The notes under the pieces are model-generated. The model saw only the letters and a program-made list of their open reading frames with translations. It had not been told where the DNA came from and did no database searches. 60,883 nucleotides of DNA, from positions 1 through 60,883 of the forward strand of contig CAYSKV010000006.1 in the NCBI GenBank assembly GCA_964431805.1. The letters are read 5' to 3'. Origin of the DNA: an uncultured Gammaproteobacteria bacterium. GTDB taxonomy: Bacteria; Patescibacteriota; Patescibacteriia; Patescibacteriales; GWC2-42-12. A program made the translations under genes and the position numbers. Every line of letters starts with the position of its first letter. Within the stretch, counting starts at the first letter, position 1. Shown here piece by piece: positions 5,218-38,973 of the stretch.

Positions 5218-5315
5218 ATTTTGGTCAAACAAATAGGCTAAGTTTATTTTAGCCTTTTTGTCGTACCTTATAAACAGAGGTTATGATTCTTTTAGGCGAT
5301 ATACTCCTTGTTATT

Positions 5316-5717: not shown

Positions 5718-5775
5718 AAATTTTTATTAAATAATTATAATTATTTTTTAGTCTTGATTTCGTCCATATAGTTAC

Positions 5776-6624: not shown

Positions 6625-6808
6625 TACAGTAAACGTCGTTATGTGAAATTAATTATAAATTTTTACTGTTTAGCACTTAAAATATAGCTTAAAACAAACC
6701 GGAAGTAAAGCTAAAGTTACCTACAGTTTATCTACTTTAGGGGGTCTGGACGCCCCGAGAACCTAGCGTCATCAATGTGGTTATAAGTAATAAATAAAGG
6801 AAAAAATT

Positions 6809-8170: not shown

Positions 8171-8227
8171 TATTTGGCTAATAATAAACATTTTATATTA
8201 TTTTAACCTATGAAAACCTATGAACAC

Positions 8228-8256
8228 TTGACATTATTTTTAGAGCATGATAGACT
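8228..8256 (+). promoter_or_regulatory. Sigma70 promoter of the R-M/CBASS operon
   Basis: TTGACA-17 nt-TAGACT with TGn extended -10; lies inside the first 20 codons of the track ORF, so the real start is probably ATG 8270. Confidence 0.7.
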
Positions 8257-8269
8257 GATATTAAACTAT

Positions 8270-9955
8270 ATGAGAAAAGACATAAAAGAAAAACTCAAAG
8301 GAATGCCAGAGTTACTCTCCATCGGTCAGGTGGCAGAGATTTTTAGCATTCACCAAGATACTTTAAGAAACTGGGAAAAGGATGGCACCCTTGTCCCCCT
8401 TAGGGTTGGCCCACGTAAGGATCGCAAATATCGCCCACAAGATATTCAAGCCATCGTGGACAAAATGGGCAGTAAACTTACTTTACCTCAGCTTGAAGCT
8501 TTCCTTTGGAAGAGCGCCGATATTCTCCGAGGGAAAATCGACAGCTCTGATTATAAAAAATATATCTTCGGCCTATTATTTTATAAACGAATGAGTGATG
8601 TGTGGGATGAAGAATATGAGTCGGTAATGAAAGAATATAACGACAAGACAATTGCTGGCGCTGATTACAATCACCGCTTTCAAGTTCCAAAAGATTGCAA
8701 ATGGGCAGTTGTTACTGAACAAGCAGAAAGCATCGGTCAAAAGTTAAATGACATTTTTGAAAAGCTTGCTAATGCCAATAGTCCGAAGTTGGACAGAATT
8801 TTTGACGATCTTGATTTCTCAAATAGAGATCGTTTTCCGAACGAAACACTCCAAAGACTCATAAATCACTTTTCTCAATATAATTTTGGTAATACTTACA
8901 TTAGTTCAGACCTCTTAGGTGATGCATACGAATATCTTATCAAACAATTTGCGGCAGACGCAGGGAAAAAAGGCGGAGAATTCTACACGCCTCGTGAAGT
9001 TGAAAAAGTCATTATTGGAATTTTAAAGCCACATCAAAAAGACCATATTTATGATCCAACCGCTGGATCAGGAGGTTTCCTACTTGAGGCATATGACTAT
9101 CTAAAACAAAAATCTGGCGAAAAGATTGCCAAGACGCTTTATCTTTATGGTCAGGAATTAAACATCAGCACTTTTGCTATTGCAAAAATTAATATGTTTT
9201 TGCACGGTCTTGATAGCGCCGATATTCGACGTGGTGACACTATTGCAAATCCTCAATTTTTGACACAAAACGGCAATCTGCAAACATTCGACATCTGCGT
9301 AGCAAATCCGCCCTACTCAATTAAGGATTGGGAATCAGAAATTTTCAGAACAAATAAATATGGACGACTTGAGGGTTACGATATGCCTCCAGAAAAAAAT
9401 GCCGACTATGCTTTTGTTTTACATATCATTAAATCAATGAATGTAAACGGCCGGGCTGGCATCGTGCTTCCTCATGGCGTTCTGACCAGGCCTAACGCTG
9501 AAGCACGAATTCGTGAACAAATACTTAAGAATGATCTAATTGAAGCAGTCATTGCTTTACCACCAAAGCTTTTTTATGGCACAGGCATCCCAGCGGCTAT
9601 TTTAATTTTCAATAAAAACAAGCCTGAAAATAAGAAAAATAAGGTGTTGATTATTGATGCCGAGAAAGATTTTCTTGAGGGTAAAAATCAAAATTCCCTC
9701 CGACCGCAAGATATAAACAAAATCGTAAAAGCATACGATGGTTATTCTGATATTGAAAAATATGCTCGTATTGTTTCACTTAAAGAGATTGAAGATAAGG
9801 GATACAGCTTAAATATCCGTGATTTTATTGACTCATCCGAAGAAGATGAATTGATTGACGTTAAAACTGTAAGAAATGATATTATTTCTCTCAAAAAAGA
9901 TTTGGCGAAATCAGACGCATTGGTCGAGAGATACTTAGATGAACTGAATTATTAA
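8270..9955 (+). CDS. hsdM: Type I R-M methyltransferase with N-terminal MerR/Xis-like HTH (track start 8210)
   Basis: LWKSADILRG, GEFYTP, YDPTAGSGG, ANPPY motifs; N-terminal LSIGQVAEIFSIHQDTLRNWEKDG. Confidence 0.95.
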   Translation: MRKDIKEKLKGMPELLSIGQVAEIFSIHQDTLRNWEKDGTLVPLRVGPRKDRKYRPQDIQAIVDKMGSKLTLPQLEAFLWKSADILRGKIDSSDYKKYIFGLLFYKRMSDVWDEEYESVMKEYNDKTIAGADYNHRFQVPKDCKWAVVTEQAESIGQKLNDIFEKLANANSPKLDRIFDDLDFSNRDRFPNETLQRLINHFSQYNFGNTYISSDLLGDAYEYLIKQFAADAGKKGGEFYTPREVEKVIIGILKPHQKDHIYDPTAGSGGFLLEAYDYLKQKSGEKIAKTLYLYGQELNISTFAIAKINMFLHGLDSADIRRGDTIANPQFLTQNGNLQTFDICVANPPYSIKDWESEIFRTNKYGRLEGYDMPPEKNADYAFVLHIIKSMNVNGRAGIVLPHGVLTRPNAEARIREQILKNDLIEAVIALPPKLFYGTGIPAAILIFNKNKPENKKNKVLIIDAEKDFLEGKNQNSLRPQDINKIVKAYDGYSDIEKYARIVSLKEIEDKGYSLNIRDFIDSSEEDELIDVKTVRNDIISLKKDLAKSDALVERYLDELNY

Positions 9956-9959
9956 AATT

Positions 9960-10832
9960 ATGAGTGTATCAACTAAATTTCAAAATTTTTGTTCAAACAT
10001 CCGCATAACAGCAAGTGTTGCTGGTGATATCTCTTATCGCTACAAAAGAATCACCAAACAACTTAACAAAGATTTTTGGGATACTGAATCAGATACATCA
10101 CATAGTTTATATGTTGGATCTTATGGCCGCGATACAGATATCCATGTTAGCGATATAGATGTATTATTTCAGTTACCATACTCTGTTTATGAAAGAATAA
10201 ATGGTCATTCGGGGAATGGTCAGTCAGCACTTCTTGCTGAAGTTCGAGACTCTTTAAGAAATACCTATAGCACCACTCATATAAGTAGTGATGGGCAGAT
10301 TATTGGAATTAAATTTGACGACGGCGTGAATTTTGAAATTTTACCTTGTTTTATAAATAAAGATGGAAGCTACACTTATCCAGATTCTAATAATGGTGGG
10401 AGTTGGAAAACTACAAATCCAAAACCTGAAATTGAGGAAATAAAAAAGACAAATGACTTATGTAATGGAAATTTAAAAAATCTTTGTAGAATGGCAAGGG
10501 CGTGGAAAGATAAATGGGATGTCCCCATGGGCGGCTTGCTAATTGATACATTAGCCTATCAATTTATAAAACAATGGGCTCACAGAAATGAATCATATTT
10601 ATATTATGATTATATGACTCGCGACTTTTTTGAATACTTAAAAAATCAGGACGAAAATAAAACCTATTGGTTAGCGGTTGGTAGCGGTCAATATGTTTAT
10701 AAAAAAGGCGATTTCCAATACAAGGCCTTACGTGGATTTAATATCTCAGAAGAAGCTATTGATTATGAGCAAAGGGAAATGCCAGCTTCGGCCAATGGCA
10801 AGTGGAGAGAAATTTATGGGACTAAATTTTAA
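9960..10832 (+). CDS. SMODS/cGAS-DncV-like nucleotidyltransferase (CD-NTase)
   Basis: VGSYGRDT...SDIDVLF nucleotidyltransferase motif, third acidic residue in FEILP, GGSWKTTNPK. Confidence 0.9.
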   Translation: MSVSTKFQNFCSNIRITASVAGDISYRYKRITKQLNKDFWDTESDTSHSLYVGSYGRDTDIHVSDIDVLFQLPYSVYERINGHSGNGQSALLAEVRDSLRNTYSTTHISSDGQIIGIKFDDGVNFEILPCFINKDGSYTYPDSNNGGSWKTTNPKPEIEEIKKTNDLCNGNLKNLCRMARAWKDKWDVPMGGLLIDTLAYQFIKQWAHRNESYLYYDYMTRDFFEYLKNQDENKTYWLAVGSGQYVYKKGDFQYKALRGFNISEEAIDYEQREMPASANGKWREIYGTKF

Positions 10833-10836
10833 TTAT

Positions 10837-11409
10837 ATGGACATAAAAAACCTTTCAATTATCAGACAGTCATTTGCAAGTACAGTTTTTACACATAAAG
10901 TCCAAGAGGTTGCATCTGAAAACCAAGAAAAAAATGTATTTATTATTAAAATAATAAATATAATACTAGTTTCGATTGTTCTTATTTTATTAATTATTCA
11001 GGCCGCAAATCCAAATAATTTAATTTTTTCTTTTATCGGTGCTGGTATTACAGCTGCTGAGATTATATTTTTGATTATTCAGCTTTCTTTTAATTTTGAA
11101 CAGAAAGTGATAATGCACAAAAACTCGGCATTAAAATATATGGGTTTACGAGACGCTTACAGATCTCTTATTACTGATGTTATGAATGAAGCTATCCAGA
11201 CGAGTGAGATTGTTAGTCGAAGAGATTTATTGCAACGAGAATATCAAATAATTTCTGATTTAGCGCCCCAGACAGGAAATAAAGAATATGCAGAAGCACA
11301 AAAAAGATTAAATAAACGCGGAGTAGTCTCTGGAGAAGATTTTACATGGTCCGACGAAGAAATAGATTGGTTTTTACCAGAAAATTTAAGGCTAAAAAGA
11401 CCACAGTAG
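10837..11409 (+). CDS. SLATT-family 2-TM effector (true start 10837; track start 10678 overlaps upstream gene)
   Basis: FTHKVQE, two TM helices, HKNSALKY..LRDAY, C-terminal LP..LR; directly follows the CD-NTase. Confidence 0.85.
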   Translation: MDIKNLSIIRQSFASTVFTHKVQEVASENQEKNVFIIKIINIILVSIVLILLIIQAANPNNLIFSFIGAGITAAEIIFLIIQLSFNFEQKVIMHKNSALKYMGLRDAYRSLITDVMNEAIQTSEIVSRRDLLQREYQIISDLAPQTGNKEYAEAQKRLNKRGVVSGEDFTWSDEEIDWFLPENLRLKRPQ

Positions 11410-11418
11410 TCCATTACT

Positions 11419-12549
11419 ATGAAAGTTAATTTATTACAAAATATTCCAAAAGATTGGGACATAAAGAAAATTAAAGATGTTCTCGACTTTGAGCAACCAA
11501 CAAAATATATAGTTGAAAGCTCAAGTTATACTCCTACTGGTGAAACAGCTGTTCTGACAGCTAATAAATCTTTTATTTTGGGTTATACAAACGAAACTGA
11601 GGGTGTATATACAGACACACCTGTAATTATTTTCGATGATTTTACTACTGACAGTAAATATGTTGATTTTCCTTTTAAAGTTAAGTCTTCGGCAATTAAA
11701 ATATTAAAAACAAAAAATACTGAAACTGAACTCAAATTTATCTATGAGTTAATGAAATTAATGAATTTTCAAATCGCAAATCATAAACGTCATTATATTT
11801 CGCAATACCAAGAACTATCTATTGTTGTTCCTCCTATTAAAGAACAGAAAAAGATTGCGGGTATCTTGTCGTCTATTGATGAGGAAATTAATATTATTGA
11901 AAATATTATAAATACGGACGAAAAATTAAAAACTGGTTTAATGCAGTCTTTGTTCGAGGGTAATTGGCCTTATAAAAAAATAAATGAAATAGCAACTGTT
12001 TTGACTGGAGGGACGCCAAGAACGTCAACAAAAGAATTTTGGAATGGATCAATTAATTGGATGTCTTCTGGTGAGGTTAATTTGCGAAGAGTTAAGAATA
12101 CAGAAAAGAAAATTACTCAAAAAGGACTCGAGGGATCCAATGCAACCATTTTACCAATAGGAACCGTTATGGTTGCTTTGGCTGGACAAGGTAAGACACG
12201 TGGGAAAGTGGCAATATTAGAAATAGAGACAACGTGCAATCAATCATTAGCCGGGATTATTACCGATAAAGAATCAGTTTTTAACGAATTTTTATTTTAT
12301 AACCTCGAAAATCGCTATCAGGAACTGAGAAATATTAGCGGTGGAGAGGGTCGTACAGGTTTAAATTTAAAGCTAATTAAAAACTTTAAAATACCAGTAC
12401 CACCCCTAAATTTACAAAAGAAAATTGCCACCGCTCTTGCTTCTATTGATGAAAGAATTACAAAAAATTTACTCTTAAAAGAAAATTTTTTAAGACTTAA
12501 GAAGGGATTAGTGTCGGATCTTTTGAGCGGAAAAGTCAGAACAAAATAA
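11419..12549 (+). CDS. hsdS: Type I R-M specificity subunit
   Basis: Two TRDs with VPPIKEQKKIA / VPPLNLQKKIA conserved regions and KKGLVSDLLSG terminus. Confidence 0.95.
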   Translation: MKVNLLQNIPKDWDIKKIKDVLDFEQPTKYIVESSSYTPTGETAVLTANKSFILGYTNETEGVYTDTPVIIFDDFTTDSKYVDFPFKVKSSAIKILKTKNTETELKFIYELMKLMNFQIANHKRHYISQYQELSIVVPPIKEQKKIAGILSSIDEEINIIENIINTDEKLKTGLMQSLFEGNWPYKKINEIATVLTGGTPRTSTKEFWNGSINWMSSGEVNLRRVKNTEKKITQKGLEGSNATILPIGTVMVALAGQGKTRGKVAILEIETTCNQSLAGIITDKESVFNEFLFYNLENRYQELRNISGGEGRTGLNLKLIKNFKIPVPPLNLQKKIATALASIDERITKNLLLKENFLRLKKGLVSDLLSGKVRTK

Positions 12550-12553
12550 TAAT

Positions 12554-15466
12554 ATGAAATTTAACGAACAATACACAATTGAATATCACATCATAAAATT
12601 CATACGAGAAAAACTCGGCTATGAATATATTCCTGCGGAAGAATTTTCTAAACTCCGTTCTTTTGAAACTGAGTATATTATCACTTCTCATCTTTTGGAA
12701 GCGGTAAAGAAAATTAACAATATTGACGATGCTGTAGCACAAAGCGTTGTGAGAGAAGTTAAAAAATCAGATACAAACGAAGCATCTCTACTCGCGATGC
12801 GAAATGGTATCAATTTGAAAGATCCAAATACTGGTAACTTCCGCGATTATAAGATTGTTGATTTTGATAATCCTGAAAATAATCATTTTGTCGTTACTAA
12901 TCAATTCTATTTTGAGGGAGCAACTGAAAACATCCGCCCTGATGTGATGATTTTCCTTAATGGCTTGCCGGTTTGTGATATAGAAGCTAAAAGTCCTACC
13001 GCTTCAAGTAGTGTCAGTTTTGAAAACGCCATTGATCAGTTAAAGAGATACGAGAAAGTCGCACCAAAGCTTTTCTTGCCTAACTGCCTTAATATCGCCA
13101 CCGATGGCCTTAAAACAGTCTACGGAGCAACTTATTCCCCAAAGCAGTACTTCCTTGCGTGGCGTGAAGATCCACAAGTGGAAAAGAAAACTTTTGAAGA
13201 CGAGCTTGATTCAACACTTTTCTTTTTACTTGATCAAAAGCAGATTCTTGACCTCATTAAAAACTTTATTGTTTTTGAAAAAAAGAAAGACGGAGTCACT
13301 AAGAAAATTACCAGATACCAACAATTTTACGCGGCCAATAAAATCGTGGCTCGCGTTCAAGATGGCGAGAGAAAGAAAGGTTTGATTTGGCATACTCAAG
13401 GATCTGGTAAGACTCTTACTATGTTTTTCACAGCTTGGAAACTTCGCTATAATCCCGAACTAAAAAATCCTAAGGTATTTATTTTGATTGATCGTATTGA
13501 TCTTGATGATCAAGTGTACGAAGAATTTGAAAGCTGGGGCGGACAAAATCTTGTAAGAGTTGAATCGCGCAAAGACCTTGAAAAGAAAATTAAAGGAGCT
13601 GATAGAGGTATCTTTATCTCAACTATTCAAAAATTCAGCGAGTTGGAAGAGATAGAAAATATTGATGGTAACGTTATTGTTCTTTCTGACGAAGCTCACC
13701 GAGACAATGAAGGTATATCAGCGATAAAGATGCGCAATGCTTTTAAAGATGCTTTCTTTTTCGGATTCACTGGAACGCCAATTGATAAATTAACGCTGAA
13801 TACTCATAGAAACTTTGGCGAAGAGGGTGAACGATATCTTGATTACTATTCAATCCAGCAAGCCATTGATGATGGCGCTACTTTACCAGTTACATACGAG
13901 GCTCGTCTTTCTAAATTCTTTATTGATGAGGAAAAAGTTGATCAGCAATTTAATGAACTCACTGTTGATTTGAATGACAAGCAAAAAGAACTGCTTACTA
14001 AAAAATACGGAAAGAAAGAGGCTCTTGTTAAATTGGATAAAAGAATGGAAGCGGTTGCTCAAGATATTATTGAGCACTACAAGCTTTATGTCTTACCAAA
14101 CGGATTCAAGGCACAGGTTGTTTGTTATGACCGCGAGGCTACGGCTAAATATAAACAGCTTTTTGATAAGCTGGTTCCAGCTGAATGGTCTGAGGTTGTC
14201 TATTCTCCTGGCGATCCAAATAGTGAAAGCGATGATCTTAAAAAATACAATACAAATAAACAGAAGCGAGAAAAAATTATTGAGCAGTTCAAAGATCCAA
14301 ATCATCCGCTTAAATTCTTACTTGTGTGCGACATGCTTTTGACTGGTTTTGATGCACCAGTTGAACAAGTAATGTATTTGGATAAACCGCTTCGCGATCA
14401 TAACCTACTTCAAGCAATCGCCCGTACAAACCGAGTATTCCCAAATAAAGGATGTGGAAAGATTATTGATTACTATGGTGTAACTAAAAATCTCTACGAC
14501 GCTCTTAATTTTGACGAGAGTGTAGTTGATAGTGCCATGGTAGATATCAACCGTCTTAAAGAAGAGTTCTCAAAAGTTATTGGCGAAATAATGGAATTAT
14601 TTGTCGGGGTTAATATCGAAGATCCATCAATAGATAACCTACGCCGATGTTTGAAGATATTTATTGAAAACCAGAGCAAACAGCAATACTTCAAGGATAA
14701 ATACAGCCGACTAAAGATGTTGTTTGAGATTCTTTCACCCGATCCATTCCTGATGGAATATCTACGCAAATTTGAGTGGATTACTAGTTTTTATTTGGCA
14801 TTCGTAAAAGAATTCCAAATTGACGACATAGACGCTTTTTCACTTGCTGAATATGGAGAGAAAATAAAGAGCTTGATTCAGCAGAAGATTGACTACGAGG
14901 GCATCACCAAAAACTTCCGAGAATTAAATATTCACGACTTAGCTACTTTAAACAAACTTGATAAACTTCCCGAAGAAGAGAAGGCTCTTAACCTTGAAAA
15001 AATGTTGAAGCGTGAGATTTCAATTAATATTGATACTCATCCGGCATTCAAGAAATTCAGCGAGCGACTTATCGCTATTCGTGTTGAATTTGAAAAGCAC
15101 CAGATTGATTTAGCAGAAAGAATAAAGCGCTACTATGAACTTCTAAACGATATAAAGACAAAGACCGAAGAAGCTAAAGAATTGGGCTACACTCTCCGCG
15201 AATACGGCCTATTTGTAATCTCTGATGAATTTATCAGCGAATCTGATAAGGATATTGTTAAGGAATTCGTAAAAGAAATGGCCGCACGACTTGAAGATGT
15301 TCTCGATGAAAACTGGCAAGATTCATCCAAGAGAGAAGAATTTTTGAAAGAAGCAAAACGAACTCTGCAAGAATTAATCCTCAAAGACTATAAGGATAAA
15401 ATAAAGGTTTCTGATTTCCACAAATATTTAAATAGATTGGTGGATGTGGTAATTAAGCGATTTTAA
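12554..15466 (+). CDS. hsdR: Type I R-M restriction subunit
   Basis: RPDV...IEAKS nuclease motif, HTQGSGKT, DEAHR, GFTGTP, MLLTGFDAP, QAIARTNR. Confidence 0.97.
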   Translation: MKFNEQYTIEYHIIKFIREKLGYEYIPAEEFSKLRSFETEYIITSHLLEAVKKINNIDDAVAQSVVREVKKSDTNEASLLAMRNGINLKDPNTGNFRDYKIVDFDNPENNHFVVTNQFYFEGATENIRPDVMIFLNGLPVCDIEAKSPTASSSVSFENAIDQLKRYEKVAPKLFLPNCLNIATDGLKTVYGATYSPKQYFLAWREDPQVEKKTFEDELDSTLFFLLDQKQILDLIKNFIVFEKKKDGVTKKITRYQQFYAANKIVARVQDGERKKGLIWHTQGSGKTLTMFFTAWKLRYNPELKNPKVFILIDRIDLDDQVYEEFESWGGQNLVRVESRKDLEKKIKGADRGIFISTIQKFSELEEIENIDGNVIVLSDEAHRDNEGISAIKMRNAFKDAFFFGFTGTPIDKLTLNTHRNFGEEGERYLDYYSIQQAIDDGATLPVTYEARLSKFFIDEEKVDQQFNELTVDLNDKQKELLTKKYGKKEALVKLDKRMEAVAQDIIEHYKLYVLPNGFKAQVVCYDREATAKYKQLFDKLVPAEWSEVVYSPGDPNSESDDLKKYNTNKQKREKIIEQFKDPNHPLKFLLVCDMLLTGFDAPVEQVMYLDKPLRDHNLLQAIARTNRVFPNKGCGKIIDYYGVTKNLYDALNFDESVVDSAMVDINRLKEEFSKVIGEIMELFVGVNIEDPSIDNLRRCLKIFIENQSKQQYFKDKYSRLKMLFEILSPDPFLMEYLRKFEWITSFYLAFVKEFQIDDIDAFSLAEYGEKIKSLIQQKIDYEGITKNFRELNIHDLATLNKLDKLPEEEKALNLEKMLKREISINIDTHPAFKKFSERLIAIRVEFEKHQIDLAERIKRYYELLNDIKTKTEEAKELGYTLREYGLFVISDEFISESDKDIVKEFVKEMAARLEDVLDENWQDSSKREEFLKEAKRTLQELILKDYKDKIKVSDFHKYLNRLVDVVIKRF

Positions 15467-15468
15467 TT

Positions 15469-16035
15469 ATGAAAAGAAAAATCGAGCTACATAAAAAGAA
15501 AGTCGAATACACCCTAAAGGTGAGCAAGCGAGCTCGAAGAATGAGACTGGCTATCTATTGCGATGGCAACTTTGTGGTCACCGCGCCGCGAAATATGAGT
15601 GAGAATATTGTTGAACAATTCATAATCAGAAAATCGCAGTGGATACTTGATAAATTAGAATATTTTAAAAGCATCTCTGGACGGATATTTTTAAGAGGTA
15701 CTAAAAAAGATTATAAGGAATACAAAGACCGAGCCCTTGATTTAGTACAAAAACGGATTGAGTATTTTAATAAAACTTACAGTTTTAGATTTAATAAGAT
15801 AAATATTAAAAATCAAAAAACTCGCTGGGGAAGTTGTTCAAAAAAAGGAAATCTCAATTTTAACTACAAAATTGCCATGCTACCTGAAAAATTAGCTGAT
15901 TATATTATTGCTCATGAGCTTTGCCATTTAAAAGAATTTAATCATTCACAAAAGTTTTGGAATTTGGTCGCAAAAATGATGCCAGACTATCAAAATTTAA
16001 AAAATGAGTTAAAAAAGGGAGGACTAAAATATTAA
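15469..16035 (+). CDS. YgjP/DUF45 (SprT-like, M48) zinc metallopeptidase
   Basis: RWGSCS and HELCH (HExxH); typical position after hsdR. Confidence 0.9.
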   Translation: MKRKIELHKKKVEYTLKVSKRARRMRLAIYCDGNFVVTAPRNMSENIVEQFIIRKSQWILDKLEYFKSISGRIFLRGTKKDYKEYKDRALDLVQKRIEYFNKTYSFRFNKINIKNQKTRWGSCSKKGNLNFNYKIAMLPEKLADYIIAHELCHLKEFNHSQKFWNLVAKMMPDYQNLKNELKKGGLKY

Positions 16036-16169
16036 TAATTTACTATGCGGCGCAGAGATTTATATTTTGATAAAAAATAATATTGAAAATTAAGATTTAT
16101 ATTATAAATCAAACATAAAAGCCCCGTGAAAACGGGGCTTTCGGGTCTGCCGATAATAAGTTTTAGATG

Positions 16170-16243
16170 CGGGACGGACGGGACTCGGACCCGCGACCTC
16201 TGCCGTGACAGGGCAGCGCTCTAACCAACTGAGCTACCGTCCC
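16170..16243 (-). tRNA. tRNA-Asp(GTC)
   Basis: Cloverleaf; anticodon arm ctgcc-ctGTCac-ggcag; T-loop reads TCCGAGT. Confidence 0.95.
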
Positions 16244-20695: not shown

Positions 20696-21250
20696 TTATA
20701 ATTTTATATAAATCAATCCGTAATGATAGGATCCAGCCTCAAATTCATCTTCCGGCTTTAAGCCAAGTTTTTTAACCGCGTTTTCAAGTAAATCCTTTTT
20801 TACTCTTTCTTCGGCCGGCGGACCAAACGGCGCGGCAACATTTTTCCATTCAACAATAACTAACTTACCATTTTTTTTCAATAATCTAGTTGATTCTCTT
20901 AAAATCTCCGCTCGCTTATGCGATTGATATAAGGTATTAATTAATAAACCAACGTCTAGACTGCCGGCTTCAATTTTTGTAGCGCCAAATATTTCTAAAT
21001 TACTCCAAACTGTTTTAATATTAGCTAAATTTTCTACACGCGCTCGTTTATTAATCGCTTCTAAGGCGGTTCTTAAAATATCAACTGCATACATTATCCC
21101 TCTTTTGCCTACTATTCTTGCTCCGGGAAAAACAAAATGGCCAGAAGAACCACAACCCAAATCAGCAACTTTCATTCTATCCCCGATTTGAGCTTTACTA
21201 AAAAGTAAATTAACATCAATTAATGTATTACCTCCTGTTGATGCTAGCAT
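20696..21250 (-). CDS. Class I SAM-dependent methyltransferase
   Basis: VADLGCGSSG, YAVDI, LKKNGKLVIVEW. Confidence 0.88.
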   Translation of the reverse strand: MLASTGGNTLIDVNLLFSKAQIGDRMKVADLGCGSSGHFVFPGARIVGKRGIMYAVDILRTALEAINKRARVENLANIKTVWSNLEIFGATKIEAGSLDVGLLINTLYQSHKRAEILRESTRLLKKNGKLVIVEWKNVAAPFGPPAEERVKKDLLENAVKKLGLKPEDEFEAGSYHYGLIYIKL

Positions 21251-21264: not shown

Positions 21265-21428
21265 GGGGATTACCGTTGAATGCTCTTTCGAGTATAAATT
21301 TTCACAATTTCGAGGAAATTTTTTATAAAATTTTTAAGGCGATATTGCTATATCGGAGAAAAAATTTTAGATAAAAATTTACCGAAATTTTAAAATTTAG
21401 GCCGAATATGGCATTCGGCGGTAATTCC
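21265..21428 (+). repeat. ~163-bp dispersed stem-bounded element, copy 1
   Basis: Interior aligns with reverse complement of 38599-38760; 18-bp terminal stem with G-T pairs. Confidence 0.85.
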
Positions 21429-21480
21429 TTAATTATGATTTTATTATAATATATTTTTTTCTATAAAACAAGCACAAAAC

Positions 21481-21528: not shown

Positions 21529-24500
21529 TTAAAATCCTAAAATCTGATTTATCTTAGCTCTAGTATATGGGCCAACAAAACCTGTGCCCTTTTCGAGATC
21601 AAGAGGATTTAAAATTTCTTTGAAATATTTTTCTTGAAACTTTATTACCGCAGCCCTAGTTAATGGACCGAAATAATTAGTTTCTTTACCGGGTGAACCT
21701 GGGCCGGTTTTAGCGAGCTGAGTATCTAAACCTTGGTTTAAGAAAATCTGCAAACGTTTTATGTCATTATCGGTTTGCCTGTATCTTAAATTTTTAGTAA
21801 ATGGCTGATTTAAAATTTTCTTAATTGTTTCTTGAATATTTTTTTCAGGCTCAACTAAATTAGTATTTTCGATTGTGTTACCAGCCGAAGTATCACCTGA
21901 AACAGATTGCTCTGATTTTAAATCATCTTTTGAATTTTTTAAAATAATTGAATCTGAAACGACTTTAGAATAATAACCCCAGCCAGTATGATATTTAACA
22001 TAAACTATGTAAGTGCCATCTGGGCAAACATCATTATTGCCACAGAGATTCCACGATTTATTGTCTTCGTAAATAAATTGAGAGGCATCTTTAAATTCTG
22101 GGTTATGAGAAATTGAAACATCAATAGTGTTAACGCCGCTATATAGATTTAAATTAACTTTCGGCGAAGAGGTAATTCCCGCGCCATTATTAATTAAAAC
22201 ACTAAAATCATTTCGTTCTGGTTCTCTGGGCGGATTATAGTCGATGATGACGCTGCCACCGTTATTTCCTATGCCAACTTCCCTTGTGATAGTAACCACG
22301 TAGGTTGTAGTTGAATTATCTTCAGCCGTCACAATAATATTAATTGTGTTTTGACCAACTGATAAATTAACGCTAGTCGGTCTGCCGCTAGATACAGGCG
22401 AACCATTAATAGTAATAGTTGAACCAGCATCAGTAGCTGTTGGAGTAATGTTTATAATCGCCACACCATTCTCAACACTAGCCGTATAATTTAGGGTGTC
22501 ACTAGAAAAAATTGGGGTTAATGTAACATTATCAATAATTAAAGAACTAACAGAAGAGTCTGAACTAAGCGCAGATGGACCAGACTCAGGTATAGTTAAA
22601 GAAAAAATCGTACCTACGTCTAAAACCGATGTCGAGGTAGTTCTGGCGGTTGTCATGCCGTAAAATTTATCATTAACAAAAGTTAAAGCGCCAGGAGAAA
22701 AAACATTGCTGCTATTTTCTTGGTTATACAAATAATACTCCGTTCTAAAATTACTTCCGTCGGGGTCAATGGAAAAAATTGTGCCTGAACCAGGCATAGT
22801 ATAAACGCCGAGTATAATCCCAACCAAAGCGGTAAATTGGTTTCCGCTAGTCATGCCATAAAGTTTACCGTTATTAACAATCATTGAGCTCCAAGGATAA
22901 GATCCGTCTTCTCCTCCAGCAAAAGAATGTAAAACAGTAAAATCACTTCCATCAGTATCAATGGAAAAAATTGTACCCTTGCTATTGGCTCCACCTAAAT
23001 AAGTTAAGCCATAAAGCTTATCATCTATAAGATTTAAAGCGCTGGCCAAAGGCTCGTCGCCATCATTAGTCCCGCCCGCAAAAACATGCAAGACGTTATA
23101 TTCTGAACTTTCAAGATCAAAAGAAAAAACAACGCTTGAATCCTCTTCGGAAAGAGGCGTACCATTAAGAACATTCACAAGATAAGAAGCAAAAGCATTG
23201 CCGTTAGTCATGCCATAAATCTTGCCGTCTGAAAAAGTTAAATAACCATAAGGATCTGCGCCTAATTCTCCGCCTTGAAAATTATAAACAATTTGAAAAT
23301 CGCTGCCATCTGGATTTATGAAAAAAATTGTACCCTTGTCATTAGTTCCGCCTCTTTCTGTTGTGCCGTAAAGTTTACCGTTATAAGGATATAACTGGCT
23401 AAAAGGACACATACCATCTATTGGATTTCCCTCGCCATCTACTCCCACGGTTAAATCGGCAAAAATATGTAATCTAGTAAAATCTGTTCCATCAGTATTC
23501 ATAGAAAAAAGTATTCCGCCCCCGCTACCCAGCGAACCACTACCTTCTCCTGGACCAGAAATAACCGTTCCTCCATAAAGTTTATCCTCATAAAGGGTTA
23601 ATGAGCCTAAAGAAAATATGCCATCATAATTGCCAGTAAAATTATGTAATATTCTAAAATCAGTTCCATCGGCCTTAACGGAAAAAATTGTACCAGCTAA
23701 AGCACTTACTCCACCTAAACCCGTTGTACCATAAAAAGTTTGCCCATCCTCAGAAGGAATTAAGCCAACGGTAGGAAATATGCCATATTGTCCAATCAAA
23801 CCAAAACGATAAAGTATTGAATAGTCGCTAGCGTCAGCTTTAATAGAAAAAATAATTCCATCACCACCACCATCTTCATTTGTCATACCATAAAGCGTTC
23901 CGTCGGAAAGTATTAATGAACCATAAGGTTCTCTGCCGTCAGTTATTACTCCTTCATCGCTAGAATTTGTTCCAAAAAATTCATGCAAAAGAGTAATGCT
24001 GCCGCCAACCGCGGGAATGGAAAAAATTGTACCAACGTCATTATTGCCGCCAGCTCTAGTCATACCATAAAGCGTTCCGTCGGAAAGTATTAATGAACCA
24101 TAAGGTTCTCTGCCGTCATCAACGCCGCCTACAAATTCATGCAAAGTAGTTATAGCTCCACCAGCGGCCGGAATGGAAAAAATTATGCCAGAATTTAAAT
24201 CACCGCCGTTAGTAGTCATACCATAAAGTGTACCATCAGAAATAATTAAAGAACCTTGAGGATAAGATCCATCATCAACCCCGCCGGCAAATTCATATAA
24301 AAGAGTAATGCTGCCGCCAGCCGCTGGAATGGAAAAAATTGTGCCAGCGTCATTATCGCCGCCAGCTCTAGTCATACCATAAAGCGTCCCGTTAGAAATA
24401 ATTAAAGAGCCATATGGAGAGGCTCCGTCATCAACCCCGCCCGCAAATTCATGAATTAAATTAAAATCTGAGCCATCAGTATCTATAGAAAAAACTGTAC

Positions 24501-26569
24501 CAGAGCCATAAGAATATTCCCAACATTCCCCCCCCCTCCTCCCAAATGCAAAACGGAACTCCACCTTCTGTTGTCATGCCATAAAGTTTATTATCAAACA
24601 ATAATAATGACCCGTAAGCACGAACTGAATTTCCGGCGTTATCAAATTCATGCAAAACAGTAAAATTGCTGCCGTCTAAATCAATAGAAAAAATTTTATC
24701 AGCATTTGAGTCCCATTGGCCGTATGTCATGCCATAGAGCTTTGTATTATCTGCAGATAAAATTAAAGAACCGCGAGGATTTTCGTTTGCTTCAAAATAA
24801 TGTAATACTGTAAAATCTGTACCGTCAGGATTAATAGAAAAAATTACACCATCCACGTCATTACTATCTAATAAAGTGCCAGTTCTTCCCCTTTCGGTCA
24901 TACCGTAAAGTTTACCATTATAATATAGTAAATCAGCTCTAGGATTTCGGCCTATAGTTGCTTCCCAATTAAACTCATGTAAAGTAGTAAGCACAGGATC
25001 TTCTGACGTCTTATTTACAACAATTTGGTAAGTTGAAGAAGAAACTCCGTCCGTGGCTGTAATAATAATATTAACGGTGTTTTCTCCGTGATTAAGATAA
25101 GCGTCTCTTGAACCACCGCTCACTACAGCCGAACCATTAACAGTAATTGAAGCATTTGCATCGCTAGCGGTTGGCGTAATAGTAACTTTATTTTCTTCCG
25201 TATCAGCAGCAGTATAGCTAAGAGTGCTACTGGCGAATACCGGAGATAACGCGCCTAAATTAATAGATAAATTACTTAAAGATGAATCAGAGGAAACTTC
25301 AGCAAAAGAAATTTTTGTTACACCATTACCATAGCTAACAGGGCTCATACTAGCAATAGGATTTGTCGCCTATATACTTGAACCATTAAAAGCAATACCA
25401 GCTGGGGACATGCCCACATTAGAATAAGTTATCATATCACCAGTAGATACATTAATTTTTGTTACGCTAGCGCCCATAACATTCCCCGTCCACATATTAG
25501 TGCCATCAAAAGCGATGCCGTAAGGCTGAGATCCCGTGCCAGTATAAGTTGTCATCTCACCAGTGGGTGAAATTTTTGTAACACTGTCGTCACCAACATT
25601 CGCGGTCCACATATTAGTGCCATCAAAAGCGATACCCAGCCCTGGGACATTTCCCCCAGACTTATCACCTGTTCCATAATAAGTTGTCATCTCGCCAGTA
25701 GGAGAAATTTTTGTTACACTGTCGTCACTGTTTGCCGTCCACATATTAATGCCGTCAAAAGCGATGCCAAGAGGACCGGTACCTGTACCAGTATAAGTTG
25801 TCATCTCGCCAGTAGGAGAAATTTTTGTAACGCTACTACCACCACCATTCGCCGTCCACATATTAATGCCGTCAAAAGCGATACCCCCGGGATTATCGCC
25901 CGTTCCAGTATAAGTTGTCATCTCGCCAGTAGGAGAAATTTTTGTAACACTACTGCCACTCATATCCACCGTCCACATATTAATGCCGTCAAAAGCGATA
26001 GAAAGAGGAGTAGTACCTGTCCCAGAATAAGTGGTCATTATGCCAGTGGGAGAAATTTTAGTTACACTGTTGCCTATCGCATTTGCTGTCCATATATTAA
26101 TACCATCAAAGGCTATGCCAAGAGGAGCAGTACCTGTCCCAGAATAAGTATTTGAAACTGCAATTAAATTTTCTCTAGTCACAACTATTGTATATGTAGT
26201 GACGCTAGAAAGATCTTGGGAGGTTGTTACTGTAGAAATAGTATTACTGCCCACAGATAAATTAATTTCAAAAGACTCACCGCTATTTACCGACGTGCCA
26301 TTAATAGTAAGTGTAGCTTCGCCGGGCGAATTAACCGTGGGTGTAATATTAAGACTCTCAACAGTATATGGCACTACGGCGGTATAGCTTAAAGTGCTAG
26401 AAGCAAAAACAGGATTAAGAACTCCTTGATCAATAGTTAGGTTGCTTAAAGAAGAATCATCAGCAGCTGCCCTAACCGAGCTTACAAAACTAAAACAAGT
26501 CCACCCAACTATTAGGAGGATTATAAAAAATTTTAGAATGGGGATCTTTTTGTTTTTCATATCACGCAT
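21529..26569 (-). pseudogene. Giant surface adhesin split into three ORFs (25370-26569, 24476-25348, 21529-24564) by in-frame TAG and a G9 frameshift
   Basis: Signal peptide, cadherin-like beta-sandwiches, Vgb/NHL-like GIAFDGxNMWTAN repeats, LYGMT..GG..GTIF propeller repeats, C-terminal peptidoglycan-binding domain (DIKRLQIFLN...YFGPLTRAAVIKFQ). Confidence 0.85.
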
Positions 26570-26814
26570 TGGTTAAATAAATTATTTAACCAATAAAAAA
26601 GCAATGGACAGACTAATCATAGAGTCCAGACCAGCTGAACTCCTGCTCCACTGCTTTTTTAGAATATTATAATTTATTTGACCATTACGCTCTATTAAAG
26701 TAGCTGGCCTATTTTTTATGAATATCATGTTTTTGTTTTTGTTTTTCAAGATAATATAATTTTTTATTATCTAATATTATTTTATCAAATATTTTGCATT
26801 TTGTCAATAAAAAA

Positions 26815-26852
26815 TTAGACTTAAGTCTACTAAATTGTAGACTTAAGTCTAA
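26815..26852. repeat. Nested palindrome, GACTTAAGTC family
   Basis: TTAGACTTAAGTCTAC-taaatt-GTAGACTTAAGTCTAA. Confidence 0.9.
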
Positions 26853-26876
26853 TCATATGAAATAATCACTTTTTTA

Positions 26877-27488
26877 TTATTTTTTAACCTTATGAAAGGT
26901 TAAGCGATGAATCGCGCATGGACCATATTGAGCTAATTTTTCTAGATGAAATTTAGTTCCGTAGCCTTTATGCTGTTTAAAGCCATAATTAGGATATAAT
27001 TGATCAATTTCTTGCATAATATGATCTCTGGTTACTTTAGCGATAATTGAAGCGGCCGCAATAGTAAAAATTCTTTCATCGCCTTTAACATAAGTTTGCT
27101 GTGGCGTAGAACAATTAGGTAATTTCATTGACCCGTCAATAATAATAAAGTCCGGTTTATTTTTAACCGAACTTATAGCTTTTTTCATGGCTAAAAATGT
27201 AGCCTGAAGTATATTAATTCTATCTATAGTTTTATGATCGCAAATTCCAACACCAACTTCAATAAAATTTTTTTTAATCGCCCCAAACAATTCTTCCCTT
27301 TTTTTAGCGCTTAATTTCTTAGAATCATCAATTTGCGCCAACTCATTATTTATGCTAATATTAGCGTTAAAAATGACACAAGCCGCAACTACTGGCCCTG
27401 CTAAGGGGCCTCTGCCGGCTTCATCTAATGCGCCTATTACCTTATGACCATGAGAAAATATTTTTTTCTCTTCTGCTAGATCGAGCAT
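26877..27488 (-). CDS. rnhB: Ribonuclease HII
   Basis: DEAGRGPLAGPVVAA, DDSKKL, IAAASIIAKVTRD, HKGYGT. Confidence 0.97.
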   Translation of the reverse strand: MLDLAEEKKIFSHGHKVIGALDEAGRGPLAGPVVAACVIFNANISINNELAQIDDSKKLSAKKREELFGAIKKNFIEVGVGICDHKTIDRINILQATFLAMKKAISSVKNKPDFIIIDGSMKLPNCSTPQQTYVKGDERIFTIAAASIIAKVTRDHIMQEIDQLYPNYGFKQHKGYGTKFHLEKLAQYGPCAIHRLTFHKVKK

Positions 27489-28411: not shown

Positions 28412-28499
28412 AAATTTAAAAAATTAATAAATTATCATACTTTACCCCCAACTTATCCACTTAAATAAATTTGACTAATATTAAACACTTATTTAAACT

Positions 28500-28577
28500 T
28501 AAGTCCACAAATTTGTGGACTTATCCACGATTTATTAAAAAAAATTAAAGTCCACAAATTTGTGGACTTTAATTTTT
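28500..28577. repeat. Two perfect palindromes AAGTCCACAAATTTGTGGACTT (28500-28523, 28540-28577)
   Basis: 24-bp and 38-bp perfect palindromes; TTATCCAC overlaps the first and another lies at ~28452. Confidence 0.9.
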
Positions 28578-30080: not shown

Positions 30081-30115
30081 TCAAAAAATAAATTGACTTA
30101 AGTTTTTCTATATCC

Positions 30116-31639: not shown

Positions 31640-31649
31640 AGATAATTAG

Positions 31650-31898
31650 TTATTTTAGAGGATCAAAACCCCCCGAATTAAATGGATTACAACGTAAAAC
31701 CCGCCAAACAGCCTTAAGCCCGCCCTTAATAAATCCGTATTTTTCTATTGCCTGGATAGCATATTCAGAACAAGTTGGATGAAAACGACAAAAACCATTA
31801 GGATATAAAAATTTTAAAATACCGTGGTCAAAAGAAAGTGTTTTTTGATAAATTTTTAAAATCTTTATTGCTATATAGCGGGGATAAAATTTAAACAT
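31650..31898 (-). CDS. yidD: Membrane protein insertion efficiency factor
   Basis: [11 protein letters not shown]...[13 protein letters not shown]. Confidence 0.95.
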
Positions 31899-31899
31899 G

Positions 31900-32250
31900 T
31901 TATTTGTTTAGTTTAAATAATTTTAAGGCAAATAACATTTTTTCTAATTCGCTTTGAATGGTTTTATAGTCTTGATCTAGCACTAACGGGGAAACTATAA
32001 CAACCAAATCAAAACCCTTAATAAGTTTTTTATTAAACTCTTTTAGGCTTGCCCTGATTTGTCTTTTTAGCTTATTTCTCTCAACGGCTTTTTTGCTAAC
32101 CTTAGTGCTAATTACAATACCATAACGATTATTATCTAATTGGTTGGCTAAAATTTTTATACGAAAAATTTTAGTATAAAACGACTTTCCTAATTTAAAT
32201 ATTCTTTTAAAATCTTTTTCCTTAACTAGACGAAATTGCTTAACTAACAT
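31900..32250 (-). CDS. rnpA: RNase P protein
   Basis: [22 protein letters not shown]. Confidence 0.95.
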
Positions 32251-32316
32251 AATAATTTAAAAAACGAGCAGTTAAAAATTTAATTTTAACCAACCCAAAA
32301 TAATATAAATAATTAT

Positions 32317-32454
32317 CTATTTAGTTAGCTTTTTTCTGCCTTTAGCTTTTCTTCTTTTAATAACATTACGGCCATTTTTTGTTTGCATCCTTTTTCTAAA
32401 GCCGTGTTTCTTTTTAGCTCGCCTTTTATTCGGTTGATAAGTCCTTTTTGGCAT
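32317..32454 (-). CDS. rpmH: 50S ribosomal protein L34
   Basis: Manual translation [45 protein letters not shown]; below track cutoff. Confidence 0.97.
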
Positions 32455-32810
32455 AAAATAATTGTATTAACCATTAAATAATTTAAACGCTAATTTAAAT
32501 TAGCGCCACAATCTATTTAATGGAAGTAAATATGGTTAATAAAAAATAAATATATGATTTTATCTCAAATAAACATAACATTTAAACTTTTTAAAGTCAA
32601 ACAAAAAAACATTATCTAATAAATTTGAATAATAAAATAATAAAAAAATCTTTTCCACTATTTATCAACATCTTTTAAACATAAAGGTCTATTTTACATT
32701 TATAATTAAGCTGTTATAATGCCTATTGCAATAAGTTTTCTGATTATTTAATATTAATTTTATATCATTTTGATATTATAATTTAAAATAAATCATAACT
32801 TCCTCGTGCT

Positions 32811-34157
32811 ATGAACAACGAACAACTTTGGCAAGCTATTTTAGGTGAAATTGAACTTAGCTTGTCCAGAGCTAATTTTACCACCTGGTTTAAAAACACT
32901 TTTATCTCTTCTATCGAAAACAACCGGGTAATTATTTGTGTACCCAACACTTTTACTAAGGCTTGGCTGGAAAAAAAATATCATAAAGAAATCGCCAACG
33001 CTTTTAAAAATGTTGGTTCAGTTGAAATTAAAGAAATTATTTATAAGGTTGAGGCTAGAAAAGAATTATCATCAGACGACTTTATAAAAAAAGTTAAAAC
33101 TGAAAATGTTGTTGAGGCTAAACCTAAAATTGTTAACCGTTTTGGTTTAAATAATCGATATATTTTTGATAATTTTATTGTTGGAAAAAATAATGAGTTA
33201 GCGCATGCAGCTTGCCAAGCCGTAGCCGCTAATCCGGGCCACGCTTACAATCCGCTCTTTATTTATGGCGGAGTAGGTTTAGGCAAAACTCACTTACTAC
33301 AAGCTATCGGCCACGAATTATCTAAAAAAACCGACAAAGTTTTATATGTTTCATCTGAAAAATTCACCAATGATTATGTTCACGCAATTAGAAATGGCCA
33401 AGCCAAAGACTTTAAAGACCGCTATCGCAATATTGATTTGCTGTTAATTGATGACATCCAATTTATGGGAGGTAAAGACGGAACACAAGAAGAATTTTTT
33501 CATACTTTTAATGAATTGCACCAAACTAATAAACAAATAGTAATTTCTTCTGACCGACCACCAAAAGCCATACCAGCTTTAGAAAAAAGATTATTATCGC
33601 GCTTTGAATGGGGCATGATTGCTGACGTCAGTTCTCCAGATTTAGAAACCAGAATAGCAATTTTAGAGACAAAGTGCCGAGAAAAAAATTATAAGCTTGA
33701 TAGAGAAATTTTGGCTTATATTGCAAATAATATAACTAACAACATCCGAGAATTAGAAGGCGCTTTAAACCGCTTGATCGCTTATTATGAATTTAATAAT
33801 TCTTTACCATCAATAGAATCAACGAAAAGTATTTTAGCTGGCATAATTTCTAATTTTCAATCAAGATCAACTACCGCTAAAACCATTATTGAGGCCGCGG
33901 CCAAATTTTTTGATATTAATATTAAAGATTTGGTTGGGCAAAGCCGTAAAAAAGAATTGGTCGTGCCCAGACAAATTGTTATGTACTTAATGCGCAAAGA
34001 AATAAACGCCTCTTATCCCTCAATCGGCCAAGAATTAGGTGGTCGAGATCACACCACCGCCATGCACGCTTATAATAAAATTGAACGCGAGTGCCAAGAA
34101 GATGAAAAAATAAAACAACACGTAGACTCTATCAAACAAGTAATTTATAGTGGCTAA
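32811..34157 (+). CDS. dnaA: Chromosomal replication initiator
   Basis: YNPLFIYGGVGLGKTHLL, LLIDDIQF, RELEGAL, GGRDHTT. Confidence 0.98.
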   Translation: MNNEQLWQAILGEIELSLSRANFTTWFKNTFISSIENNRVIICVPNTFTKAWLEKKYHKEIANAFKNVGSVEIKEIIYKVEARKELSSDDFIKKVKTENVVEAKPKIVNRFGLNNRYIFDNFIVGKNNELAHAACQAVAANPGHAYNPLFIYGGVGLGKTHLLQAIGHELSKKTDKVLYVSSEKFTNDYVHAIRNGQAKDFKDRYRNIDLLLIDDIQFMGGKDGTQEEFFHTFNELHQTNKQIVISSDRPPKAIPALEKRLLSRFEWGMIADVSSPDLETRIAILETKCREKNYKLDREILAYIANNITNNIRELEGALNRLIAYYEFNNSLPSIESTKSILAGIISNFQSRSTTAKTIIEAAAKFFDINIKDLVGQSRKKELVVPRQIVMYLMRKEINASYPSIGQELGGRDHTTAMHAYNKIERECQEDEKIKQHVDSIKQVIYSG

Positions 34158-34423
34158 TAACCTAATGAAAAGTATTAGTTTGTTTGTTGATAGTCTGTTA
34201 AAAATTTTATACAAAAAAATTTCATCCACAGTCAGCTTATTTATTCCACTTTTTTTTCAACAACAACCCCACAATTATAAAACCAACAAAACAACAAACC
34301 CTAGCCAAGACCAAACAAAAAATTAACTTATCAACCCACTTATTATTATTACTATTTATAAATTATATAAATACTAATTAATTAATAAACACCCAAATCT
34401 GTTAATAACTTATAAAATATATT
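34158..34423. other. Probable oriC
   Basis: AT-rich dnaA-dnaN spacer with DnaA-box-like 9-mers (TTATACAAA 34207, TCATCCACA 34222); plus strand looks C-rich before and G-rich after (by eye only). Confidence 0.6.
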
Positions 34424-38760: not shown

Positions 38761-38973
38761 TAATATAAAAAATTATAACAGTTTTTTACATATCTAGCAA
38801 TGAATAATTTTTTAAAAATTTAAATCTACCAATTTTTATTTTAAGCTATTGGCCGGCTTTAGCGTTTTGTGGTAAAATATAATTAATGTTAATAACTTAA
38901 TTATTAAAAATTAACACTAACGCGACAGGTTAATTTCTGGCGTATTGGTGTTTTCTTTGAGGGGAGGTGAAAA

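Follow-up and report, generated by a model that had tools for sequence, protein, structure and literature searches.

A probable family of mobile foldback repeats in Patescibacteria with covarying terminal stems and an orientation that follows replication

Introduction

Patescibacteria (Candidate Phyla Radiation) have tiny, streamlined genomes. The contig CAYSKV010000006.1, whose 60,883 nucleotides are referred to here as the window, carries two copies, in opposite orientation, of a ~163-bp sequence upstream of a SAM-methyltransferase gene and of the PBP1A gene. An initial annotation described closely similar interiors enclosed by a terminal stem that was "rewritten but still pairs", and offered two readings, an undescribed structured RNA or a hairpin-type mobile repeat. 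Which of the two applies, and what keeps ends of differing sequence complementary? Here, we address these questions by comparing the copies with related loci, with empty sites and with the direction of replication. The best-supported reading places the element among the small bacterial repeats with a long stem-loop fold. It probably represents a previously undescribed family of ~163-bp non-coding, non-autonomous, MITE-like foldback mobile elements of Patescibacteria.

Materials and methods

Family members were collected by pattern scans of public genomes and metagenomes, by nhmmer, and from loci around PBP1A homologs, which were labelled Patescibacteria or Falkowbacteria by their sources. A search for spurious ORFs over the element with six-frame peptides yielded one cluster, which corresponds to locus G. 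Pairing was evaluated in an alignment (A6) of 11 sequences and 64 pairs, with 500 column shuffles and with 3′ partners slid by 1–3 columns as controls. The strand with negative GC skew was identified from the raw flank skew at loci A, B, C, D, F, and G; at loci B, C, E, F, and G the gene-strand effect was separated from the replication effect.

Results and discussion

Two copies of a long hairpin in the window

Both copies were confirmed at their initially annotated coordinates and strands (Table 1). They are alignable end to end, with a mean column identity of 87%. The central 20-nt motif AGGCRATATTGCTATATYGG occurs exactly twice in the window, compared to 0.02 expected occurrences. Each copy forms a single long imperfect hairpin (−60.4 kcal/mol, z = −8.7 for copy A; −57.4 kcal/mol, z = −9.6 for copy B), and none of 200 dinucleotide shuffles was as stable in either case. 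The fold comprises an 18–19-bp terminal helix and four inner helices, with 64 pairs in total. Copies of the element are 161–164 bp long, have stops in all six frames (longest open stretch, 39 codons), contain more G than C (30 vs 20), and have GG/CC tips without TA. Around half of the positions in the terminal stem are not the same in copies A and B, most of the changes being transitions, and each version pairs. The stem of copy A contains three G-T wobbles, matching the three G-U pairs counted before, and that of copy B one A-C mismatch and one G-T. At the apex, alignment pair 77/90 is AU in four cases and GC in four.

Table 1 Features of the window and of related loci. Positions refer to the window unless another locus is named; for loci A–G, the strand column gives the orientation relative to the adjacent gene.
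Feature	Position	Strand	Remarks
Copy A, hairpin element	21265–21428	+	Defines the forward strand; 182 bits with covariance model R1
Copy B, hairpin element	38599–38760	−	153.5 bits with covariance model R1
Copy A terminal stem, 5′ arm GGGATTACCGTTGAATGCT	21266–21284	+	Partner 21410–21428
Copy A terminal stem, 3′ arm GGCATTCGGCGGTAATTCC	21410–21428	+	Partner 21266–21284
Copy A apical hairpin CGATAT-TGCT-ATATCG	21340–21355	+	A:T replaces a G:C pair in copy B
Promoter-like TTGTTT-17-TATAAT	21443–21471	−	Consensus match only, read directly from the sequence; −10 box ends 14 nt before copy A
Promoter-like TTGCTA-17-TGtTATAAT	38772–38800	−	10/12 matches plus extended −10 TG; ends 11 nt before copy B
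SAM-methyltransferase gene	20696–21250	−
PBP1A gene	35650–38589	−
Locus A	Window and ortholog in sister MAG SO_2017_LW3_29 (L006/L015)	antisense	14 nt before methyltransferase ATG; 5′ arm GGGGATTACCGTTGAATGC
Locus B	Window, L016, L017	sense	9 nt before PBP1A ATG; 5′ arm GGGGCTATTAATAAAGGC
Locus C	L005/L011	antisense	9–10 nt before ATG of pilin-like 595-aa gene; 5′ arm GGGGCTGTCGCCGAATGC
Locus D	L009 (44% GC genome)	antisense	18 nt before membrane-protein ATG; PHP-like ORF runs into element; 5′ arm GGAACCGTCGCCGAATGC
Locus E	L010, L012–L014	sense	9 nt before RNase Y ATG; 5′ arm GGGACTGTCGCCGAATGC
Locus F	L018	sense	Internally deleted, 117 nt; from bactofilin stop codon to 20 nt before DAGK ATG; 5′ arm GGGGTTATCTCCGAATAC
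Locus G	L019–L026	sense	16 nt past TTGACA-16-TGaTAATAT promoter; directly abuts T-box-like leader; 5′ arm GAGACTGTGGTCGAATGC
T-box-like leader at locus G	L019 6242–6480		RF00230, 59 bits, E = 3e-12, under the gathering score of 93; terminator present
PHP-like ORF at locus D	L009 2902–3660		Last 10 codons and stop inside element
Empty bactofilin–DAGK intergenic site	30081–30115	+	Site of locus F in relative L018
Other-family hairpin	51373–51547		175 bp; −58.8 kcal/mol, z = −9.0; perfect 21-bp terminal inverted repeat AGATAGTTATAAAACTATTTC
Other-family hairpin	L030 17054–17199		Second copy at L030 22759–22852
Other-family hairpin	L030 17978–18144		Copy in L011, 8296–8431
Other-family hairpin	L019 6488–6614
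Probable replication origin region	31640–34423		Cumulative GC-skew minimum at ~32–34 kb; dnaA at 32811–34157
Three Cadherin-like repeat protein ORFs	21529–26569		Between RNase HII and methyltransferase genes
RNase HII gene	26877–27488
Probable integrated island	1–16243		Beside tRNA-Asp (16169–16243); GC skew reversed
Large serine recombinase gene	6809–8170		In island
hsdM	8210–9955		In island; type I restriction-modification
SMODS nucleotidyltransferase and SLATT_4 effector genes	9960–11409		In island, between hsdM and hsdS
hsdS	11419–12549		In island; type I restriction-modification
hsdR	12554–15466		In island; type I restriction-modification
Palindromic motif AGACTTAAGTCYAC-N5-7-GTRGACTTAAGTCT	26810–26853, 28495–28577, 43383–43501		Intergenic; at least five copies, some tandem

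Genomic setting

The window has a GC content of 34% and contains arrays of T4SS-pilin paralogs, and dnaA and dnaN adjoin the PBP1A gene. Both copies had been placed 10–15 nt upstream of a start codon and in opposite orientation to their genes. This description fits copy A, which is antisense to the methyltransferase gene and located 14 nt before its ATG (21250), whereas copy B is sense to the PBP1A gene and located only 9 nt before its ATG (38589). A promoter-like sequence lies beyond each copy. The TTGTTT −35 box near copy A has three of six consensus matches and was missed by the promoter scan for that reason; given this site, the methyltransferase leader would include the element. The promoter-like site near copy B is kept in orthologous sites, filled and empty alike. 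In addition, a bidirectional terminator is located ~50 nt past copy A.

Shine-Dalgarno-like motifs were found for only 6 of the 54 window ORFs, and their absence at the methyltransferase and PBP1A genes is therefore uninformative. The idea that the base of the hairpin supplies or sequesters a Shine-Dalgarno sequence was dropped because of this scarcity. Many start codons in the window lie 7–30 nt past a TATAAT-like box, and this spacing, together with the scarce Shine-Dalgarno-like motifs, suggests short-leader or leaderless mRNAs in the lineage of the window.

Other features were also noted in the window. The RNase HII and methyltransferase genes are adjacent in six relatives (L017, L018, and L027–L030), which do not have the Cadherin-like block that separates them here, and copy A lies precisely where this extra block meets the methyltransferase gene. 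The probable island at the left end encodes a ParB-N/N6-N4 DNA methylase in addition to the genes listed in Table 1. The palindromic motif AGACTTAAGTCYAC-N5-7-GTRGACTTAAGTCT looks like the operator of a dimeric regulator or another small repeat family.

Seven unrelated loci

A search for further copies yielded five loci beyond the two in the window. The seven loci (A–G) are independent and unrelated, and occur in several Patescibacteria metagenomes in host genomes of 31–44% GC. The interiors of the element are 85–98% identical among loci, and the genes beside it are functionally unrelated. At six of the seven loci the element ends 9–20 nt before a start codon, and at three it starts 11 nt (B), 14 nt (A), or 16 nt (G) past a −10 box. 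The T-box-like leader at locus G precedes a PEPcase_2-family gene, not an aminoacyl-tRNA synthetase or amino-acid gene.

A matching 3′ arm accompanies the 5′ arm at every locus, with the most diverged stem at B. Judged from these seven sequences, the terminal stems are homologous, compensated variants of one consensus, GGGRCTGTCGCCGAATGC. The initial statement that the stem still pairs holds for both copies, while the differences, mostly transitions, do not amount to wholesale rewriting.

Several gene calls are affected by the element. At position 3648 of L013, an in-frame upstream ATG created by the element lengthens the RNase Y call by 10 codons, and the protein P0121 of L019–L026 is a spurious 43-aa ORF called across the element. 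The PHP-like ORF of L009 likewise has its end inside the element (Table 1).

Copy density is low (2 in 61 kb). When wastewater contigs were compared with copy A, only fragments of copy B were recovered, because the repeat interrupts the contigs. No family member emerged from two pattern scans of viral contigs, BLAST against plasmid and phage collections found no similarity to the element, and neither the window nor the related loci (~285 kb) yielded additional members with covariance model R1. In Rfam there was no match at the gathering threshold, as anticipated in the initial annotation; the best hit, a plant miRNA precursor (27 bits vs 140, E = 0.032), is a generic long-hairpin match. Literature searches retrieved no described dispersed-repeat family for Patescibacteria. 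The family is undescribed to the extent covered by Rfam, by collections of phages and plasmids, and by the searchable literature.

Filled and empty sites

Upstream of the PBP1A gene, the window, L016, and L017 carry the element, whereas L018 has the same promoter and leader with a cleanly empty site. The empty site reads ...TATAATTTTTTTATATTT/CAAACATTTATG and the filled site ...TATATTA[GGGGCTATT...AATAGCCCC]ACAAACATTATG, with the junctions TATATTT/CAAACA vs TATATTA[GGGG..CCCC]ACAAACA. The spacer between the bactofilin and DAGK genes is filled (copy F) only in L018 and measures 27–35 bp in the window, L016, and L017 (AAATAA/AAACTGG vs AAATA[GGGG..CCTC]AATCTG). Upstream of the methyltransferase gene, spacers of 56–115 bp in L017, L018, and L027–L030 leave no room for the element. 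These alignments demonstrate that the whole hairpin, including its terminal stem, is an insertion found at some orthologous sites and missing from others. In the two filled/empty comparisons, no duplication of the target site exceeding 1 nt was found. The flanks share no conserved target motif and are merely A/T-rich, with TATT, ATTA, ATAA, CATA, ATAA, AATA, and TAAA on the left and equally heterogeneous sequences on the reverse strand.

Some insertion sequences target palindromes. If the element had landed in the loops of hairpins that were already there, for instance terminators, its variable terminal stem would derive from the target, and stems that differ between copies yet always pair would be trivially accounted for. 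However, no hairpin is present at the empty PBP1A site in L018, where the stem is missing along with the core, and the empty bactofilin–DAGK site likewise lacks a stem. The empty sites thus refute insertion into pre-existing hairpins, to which we assign practically no probability.

Covariation of the terminal stem

In alignment A6, 96% of the cells are standard pairs. Both sides have changed in 18 of the 64 pairs, 14 of which belong to the 19-bp terminal helix, and the outer 8–12 bp of the inverted repeat differ between copies in a strictly compensated manner. None of the 500 column shuffles matched the observed covariation and pairing values, and pairing fell to 30–57% when the 3′ partner was slid by 1–3 columns. 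Since covariation exceeded the shuffled and all slid controls, selection for pairing, or a mechanism that preserves it, is well supported by the alignment. This agrees with the initial proposal that selection acts on the structure and not on the terminal sequence.

Two other processes were considered and rejected. Concerted evolution or gene conversion between A and B is contradicted by the fact that each copy is nearer to its ortholog (94–96%) than to the other copy (~87%), and regeneration of the arms by fold-back copying at each transposition is contradicted by the asymmetric internal loops kept in all copies.

Constraint on resident copies

Copy A is 93.9% identical between the window and the sister species (L006), compared to 84.9% at third codon positions of the methyltransferase gene and 83% in flanking intergenic DNA. 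For copy B, the identity between the window and L017 is 95.7% (third codon positions of PBP1A, 68.8%; flanking intergenic DNA, 83.9%), and between the window and L016 it is 93.3% plus a 14-column apical gap (76.4% and 91.5%, respectively). Among the 10 differences between the orthologs of copy A, five affect unpaired positions and four are Watson-Crick to G·U changes on the forward strand; unpaired positions diverge at about the neutral rate, and paired ones mostly exchange Watson-Crick for G·U pairs or vice versa. Resident copies thus appear to be under purifying selection on pairing. Decayed, internally deleted copies exist too (L016, L018). For a repeat that is purely selfish, it is unusual to be more conserved than synonymous sites, and this points to a role at the level of the host. 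This constraint in situ and the position between −10 box and ATG indicate that inserted copies probably form hairpins in transcribed leaders and are of importance to the host. By analogy with Correia and ERIC, they might plausibly protect the 5′ end or be processed by RNase III.

Much of this would also suit a host cis-regulatory leader RNA in the first place, i.e. a 5′-UTR hairpin that controls stability, processing, or translation of the downstream message and whose mobility is incidental or ancient. The element lies between −10 box and ATG or ahead of a T-box leader, resident copies exceed synonymous sites and flanking intergenic DNA by far in conservation, and in the orthologs of copy A unpaired sites evolve almost neutrally while paired sites mostly alternate between Watson-Crick and G·U. 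Effects on leaders also have precedents in ERIC and Correia repeats (PMC2229807). Nevertheless, we consider this reading unlikely. With four sense and three antisense loci, the mRNAs carry different strands of the element, and at locus A the substitutions keep the fold of the strand that is absent from the mRNA. Furthermore, the neighbouring genes have unrelated functions, orthologous sites in close relatives are empty with promoter and ATG intact, and the orientation tracks replication, as described below.

Strand preference and replication

The element is sense to the adjacent gene at loci B, E, F, and G and antisense at A, C, and D. Its forward strand folds more stably than the complement in all nine full-length copies (by 5–15 kcal/mol, RNA parameters) and in all eight copies tested with DNA parameters (by 4–12 kcal/mol). 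The alignment contains 37 G·U vs 12 A·C cells on the forward strand. Copies A and B are oppositely oriented and lie to either side of dnaA and the cumulative-skew minimum. The GC skew of the flanks is negative on the forward strand, i.e. this strand has lagging-strand composition, at all seven loci (two-sided binomial p of ~0.016, with GC skew as a proxy for fork direction that is weak for D and E), and four long hairpins of other sequence families obey the same rule. By this proxy, the orientation of the element follows the direction of replication and not the adjacent gene.

The probable origin region of the window has rnpA/yidC on one side and dnaA and dnaN on the other, and this synteny is kept in all relatives fetched.

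Replication-associated mutation bias was rejected as the cause of the strand asymmetry. By reasoning, an excess of C-to-T changes on the strand of leading composition predicts G·T wobbles on the opposite strand, and thus the reverse of the observed asymmetry; the excess of G over C in the element itself also runs against the skew of the flanks.

The G·U excess on the forward strand might instead reflect a stand-alone, multi-copy small RNA gene transcribed from that strand, and strong consensus promoters that aim into the forward strand at B and G, as well as the bidirectional terminator past copy A, would fit such a gene. We regard it as very unlikely, because a consistent forward promoter is absent at A, C, and D, no terminator follows at B, E, F, and G, where transcription would enter the gene or the T-box leader, and an Rfam match is absent. 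The filled/empty polymorphism and the internally deleted copies in L016 and L018 also suit a repeat better than a gene.

The interior is strongly conserved even in the genome with 44% GC, its AnTn junctions are spaced by 8–13 bp, and a palindrome would function in either orientation. These features might suggest a double-stranded DNA signal, namely a palindromic, intrinsically bent platform for a nucleoid or regulatory protein between promoter and gene. However, the A/T-tract periodicity was equalled by 315 of 2000 shuffles for copy A and by 80 of 2000 for copy B; it is not clearly above shuffles and lends weak support to the initial suggestion that phased A/T tracts bend the DNA. A duplex-binding protein would leave the complementary covariation of the arms, the strand asymmetry of wobble pairs, and the replication-locked orientation unexplained, and we consider such a signal extremely unlikely.

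None of these three alternatives, the leader RNA, the small RNA, or the duplex signal, explains the covariation, the placement in either orientation, the filled and empty sites, and the replication polarity together. Of the two readings offered initially, the hairpin-type mobile repeat is the better one, given the filled/empty sites (the comparison that had been proposed) and the seven unrelated loci in different genomes. A structured RNA as the primary identity is disfavoured by the mixture of four sense and three antisense loci and by an orientation that tracks replication.

A possible route of mobility

Neither the window nor ~285 kb of related loci yielded a transposase, another candidate mobilising gene, or a cognate autonomous IS with the same ends, and no Y1_Tnp hit came from the 38 window ORFs that were scanned or from the genes called in the related loci. 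Mobility of the foldback element might depend on a trans-acting enzyme that recognises the conserved core and inner stem (CCGAATGC...GCATTCGG, tips GG/CC). This enzyme would act on the folded single strand, in which base pairing must unite the two ends; ends joined by pairing would be free to drift in sequence as long as they remain complementary. From the lack of TA tips and of a duplication, the covarying outer repeat, and the replication-locked orientation, we infer that the ends are recognised as a paired single-strand structure and that either the insertion or the persistence of copies involves single-stranded DNA at the replication fork. Such a coupling would explain why the better-folding, G·T-tolerant strand is always the strand of lagging composition.

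Promoter-proximal sites may be favoured, since open or stalled complexes there expose single strands, and since an insertion between −10 box and ATG spares both signals. The inserted element would then be transcribed within the leader, where the closed hairpin would keep the short AT-rich spacer before the ATG free. Its integrity would be maintained by purifying selection, possibly as a leader hairpin that protects the end or is processed by RNase III.

Other foldback families

Model R1 also gave weak matches to 127–175-bp hairpins of unrelated sequence and the same architecture in the window and in related Patescibacteria (Table 1). The one in the window lies between a TATAAT, 8 nt away, and the start codon of a pilin paralog (ATG at 51572), 24 nt away, with TATAATTAA repeated on both sides. 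Judging by these hairpins, the clade of the window appears to carry several foldback-repeat families.

Taken further, the element and the unrelated 145–175-bp hairpin families might all be mobile DNA that moves as a self-closed single-stranded hairpin and is incorporated into the nascent lagging strand at the fork, for instance where forks stall close to promoters. The ends would be united by pairing alone, and the process would require neither sequence-specific ends nor a target duplication. Such movement would account for a closing stem that covaries freely, the lack of a duplication, the fixed polarity (the hairpin strand being the lagging-strand sequence), and the existence of many families with one architecture. 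We consider this broader proposal quite unlikely.

Implications

As a probable mobile repeat, the family provides a natural example of ends that are constrained by pairing and not by sequence, and of an orientation set by replication. This combination is a signature of single-strand DNA transactions and has so far been tied to IS200/IS605 and attC; the interest in the family would be higher if replication-coupled, structure-only recognition were true. The element inserts precisely between −10 box and start codon, with insertions at core genes (PBP1A, RNase Y, methyltransferase) and also next to a T-box leader, and is a candidate route to leader structure in organisms mostly without Shine-Dalgarno sequences. 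For practical purposes, it is relevant that such hairpins break short-read assemblies and yield spurious ORFs and N-terminal extensions.

Comparison with known systems

Small bacterial repeats that form long stem-loops include ERIC/IRU, Correia/NEMIS, RUP, and RPE (PMC2229807). Like these, the element is shorter than 200 bp, non-coding, and A+T-rich, has terminal inverted repeats, and forms one long stable stem-loop over its entire length. It is also dispersed in transcribed intergenic DNA in either orientation, with filled and empty sites. Members of this class are co-transcribed with their neighbours, and inclusion in leaders is likewise predicted for the element; for Correia and ERIC, effects of RNase III or RNase E on mRNA processing or stability have been documented (PMC2229807). 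In contrast to this class, the element has GG/CC tips without TA and no target-site duplication, its inverted-repeat sequence is not constant between copies, and its orientation is locked to replication. In terms of bacterial MITEs (PMC2229807), it is small and non-coding, with terminal inverted repeats, a stem-loop, and dispersed filled/empty copies, but it lacks the target-site duplication, often TA at the termini, that characterises them.

The IS200/IS605 group, with its PATE and REP/RAYT relatives, resembles the element in the absence of a target duplication. Recognition of folded single-stranded DNA and a coupling of insertion and excision to the fork may be further likenesses. In IS200/IS605 elements, this coupling leads to a genome-wide orientation bias; for the element, an orientation bias relative to replication is seen at all seven loci. 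The lagging-strand template is where IS200/IS605 elements insert, and stalled forks as well as highly transcribed DNA attract them (PMC5027513), as might also be true of the element. They differ from the element by having two separate subterminal hairpins on one strand instead of one global foldback, and by inserting 3′ of a fixed tetra- or pentanucleotide, whereas the flanks of the element are loosely A/T-rich with no fixed 4–5-nt target. Moreover, their active strand is the lagging-strand template, while the better-folding strand of the element is the leading-strand template. If the better-folding strand is the active one, the polarity of the element is opposite to that of IS200/IS605 (IS608).

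Integron attC sites are imperfect palindromes of 57–141 nt that are recognised by structure as a single strand, with one strand preferred, and in this they resemble the foldback, for which such single-strand recognition is proposed. No GTTRRRY, as in the attC boxes (RYYYAAC/GTTRRRY), was found in the element, which ends in GG..CC, and no integrase was found nearby. The attC sites have conserved ends (R''/R' boxes) and a variable inside, which is the reverse of the situation in the element family, and integron cassettes lie in one array beside intI, whereas copies of the element are single and dispersed among core genes. The recombinogenic attC strand of sedentary chromosomal integrons is maintained on the leading-strand template (PMC5371416), a polarity shared by the better-folding strand of the element.
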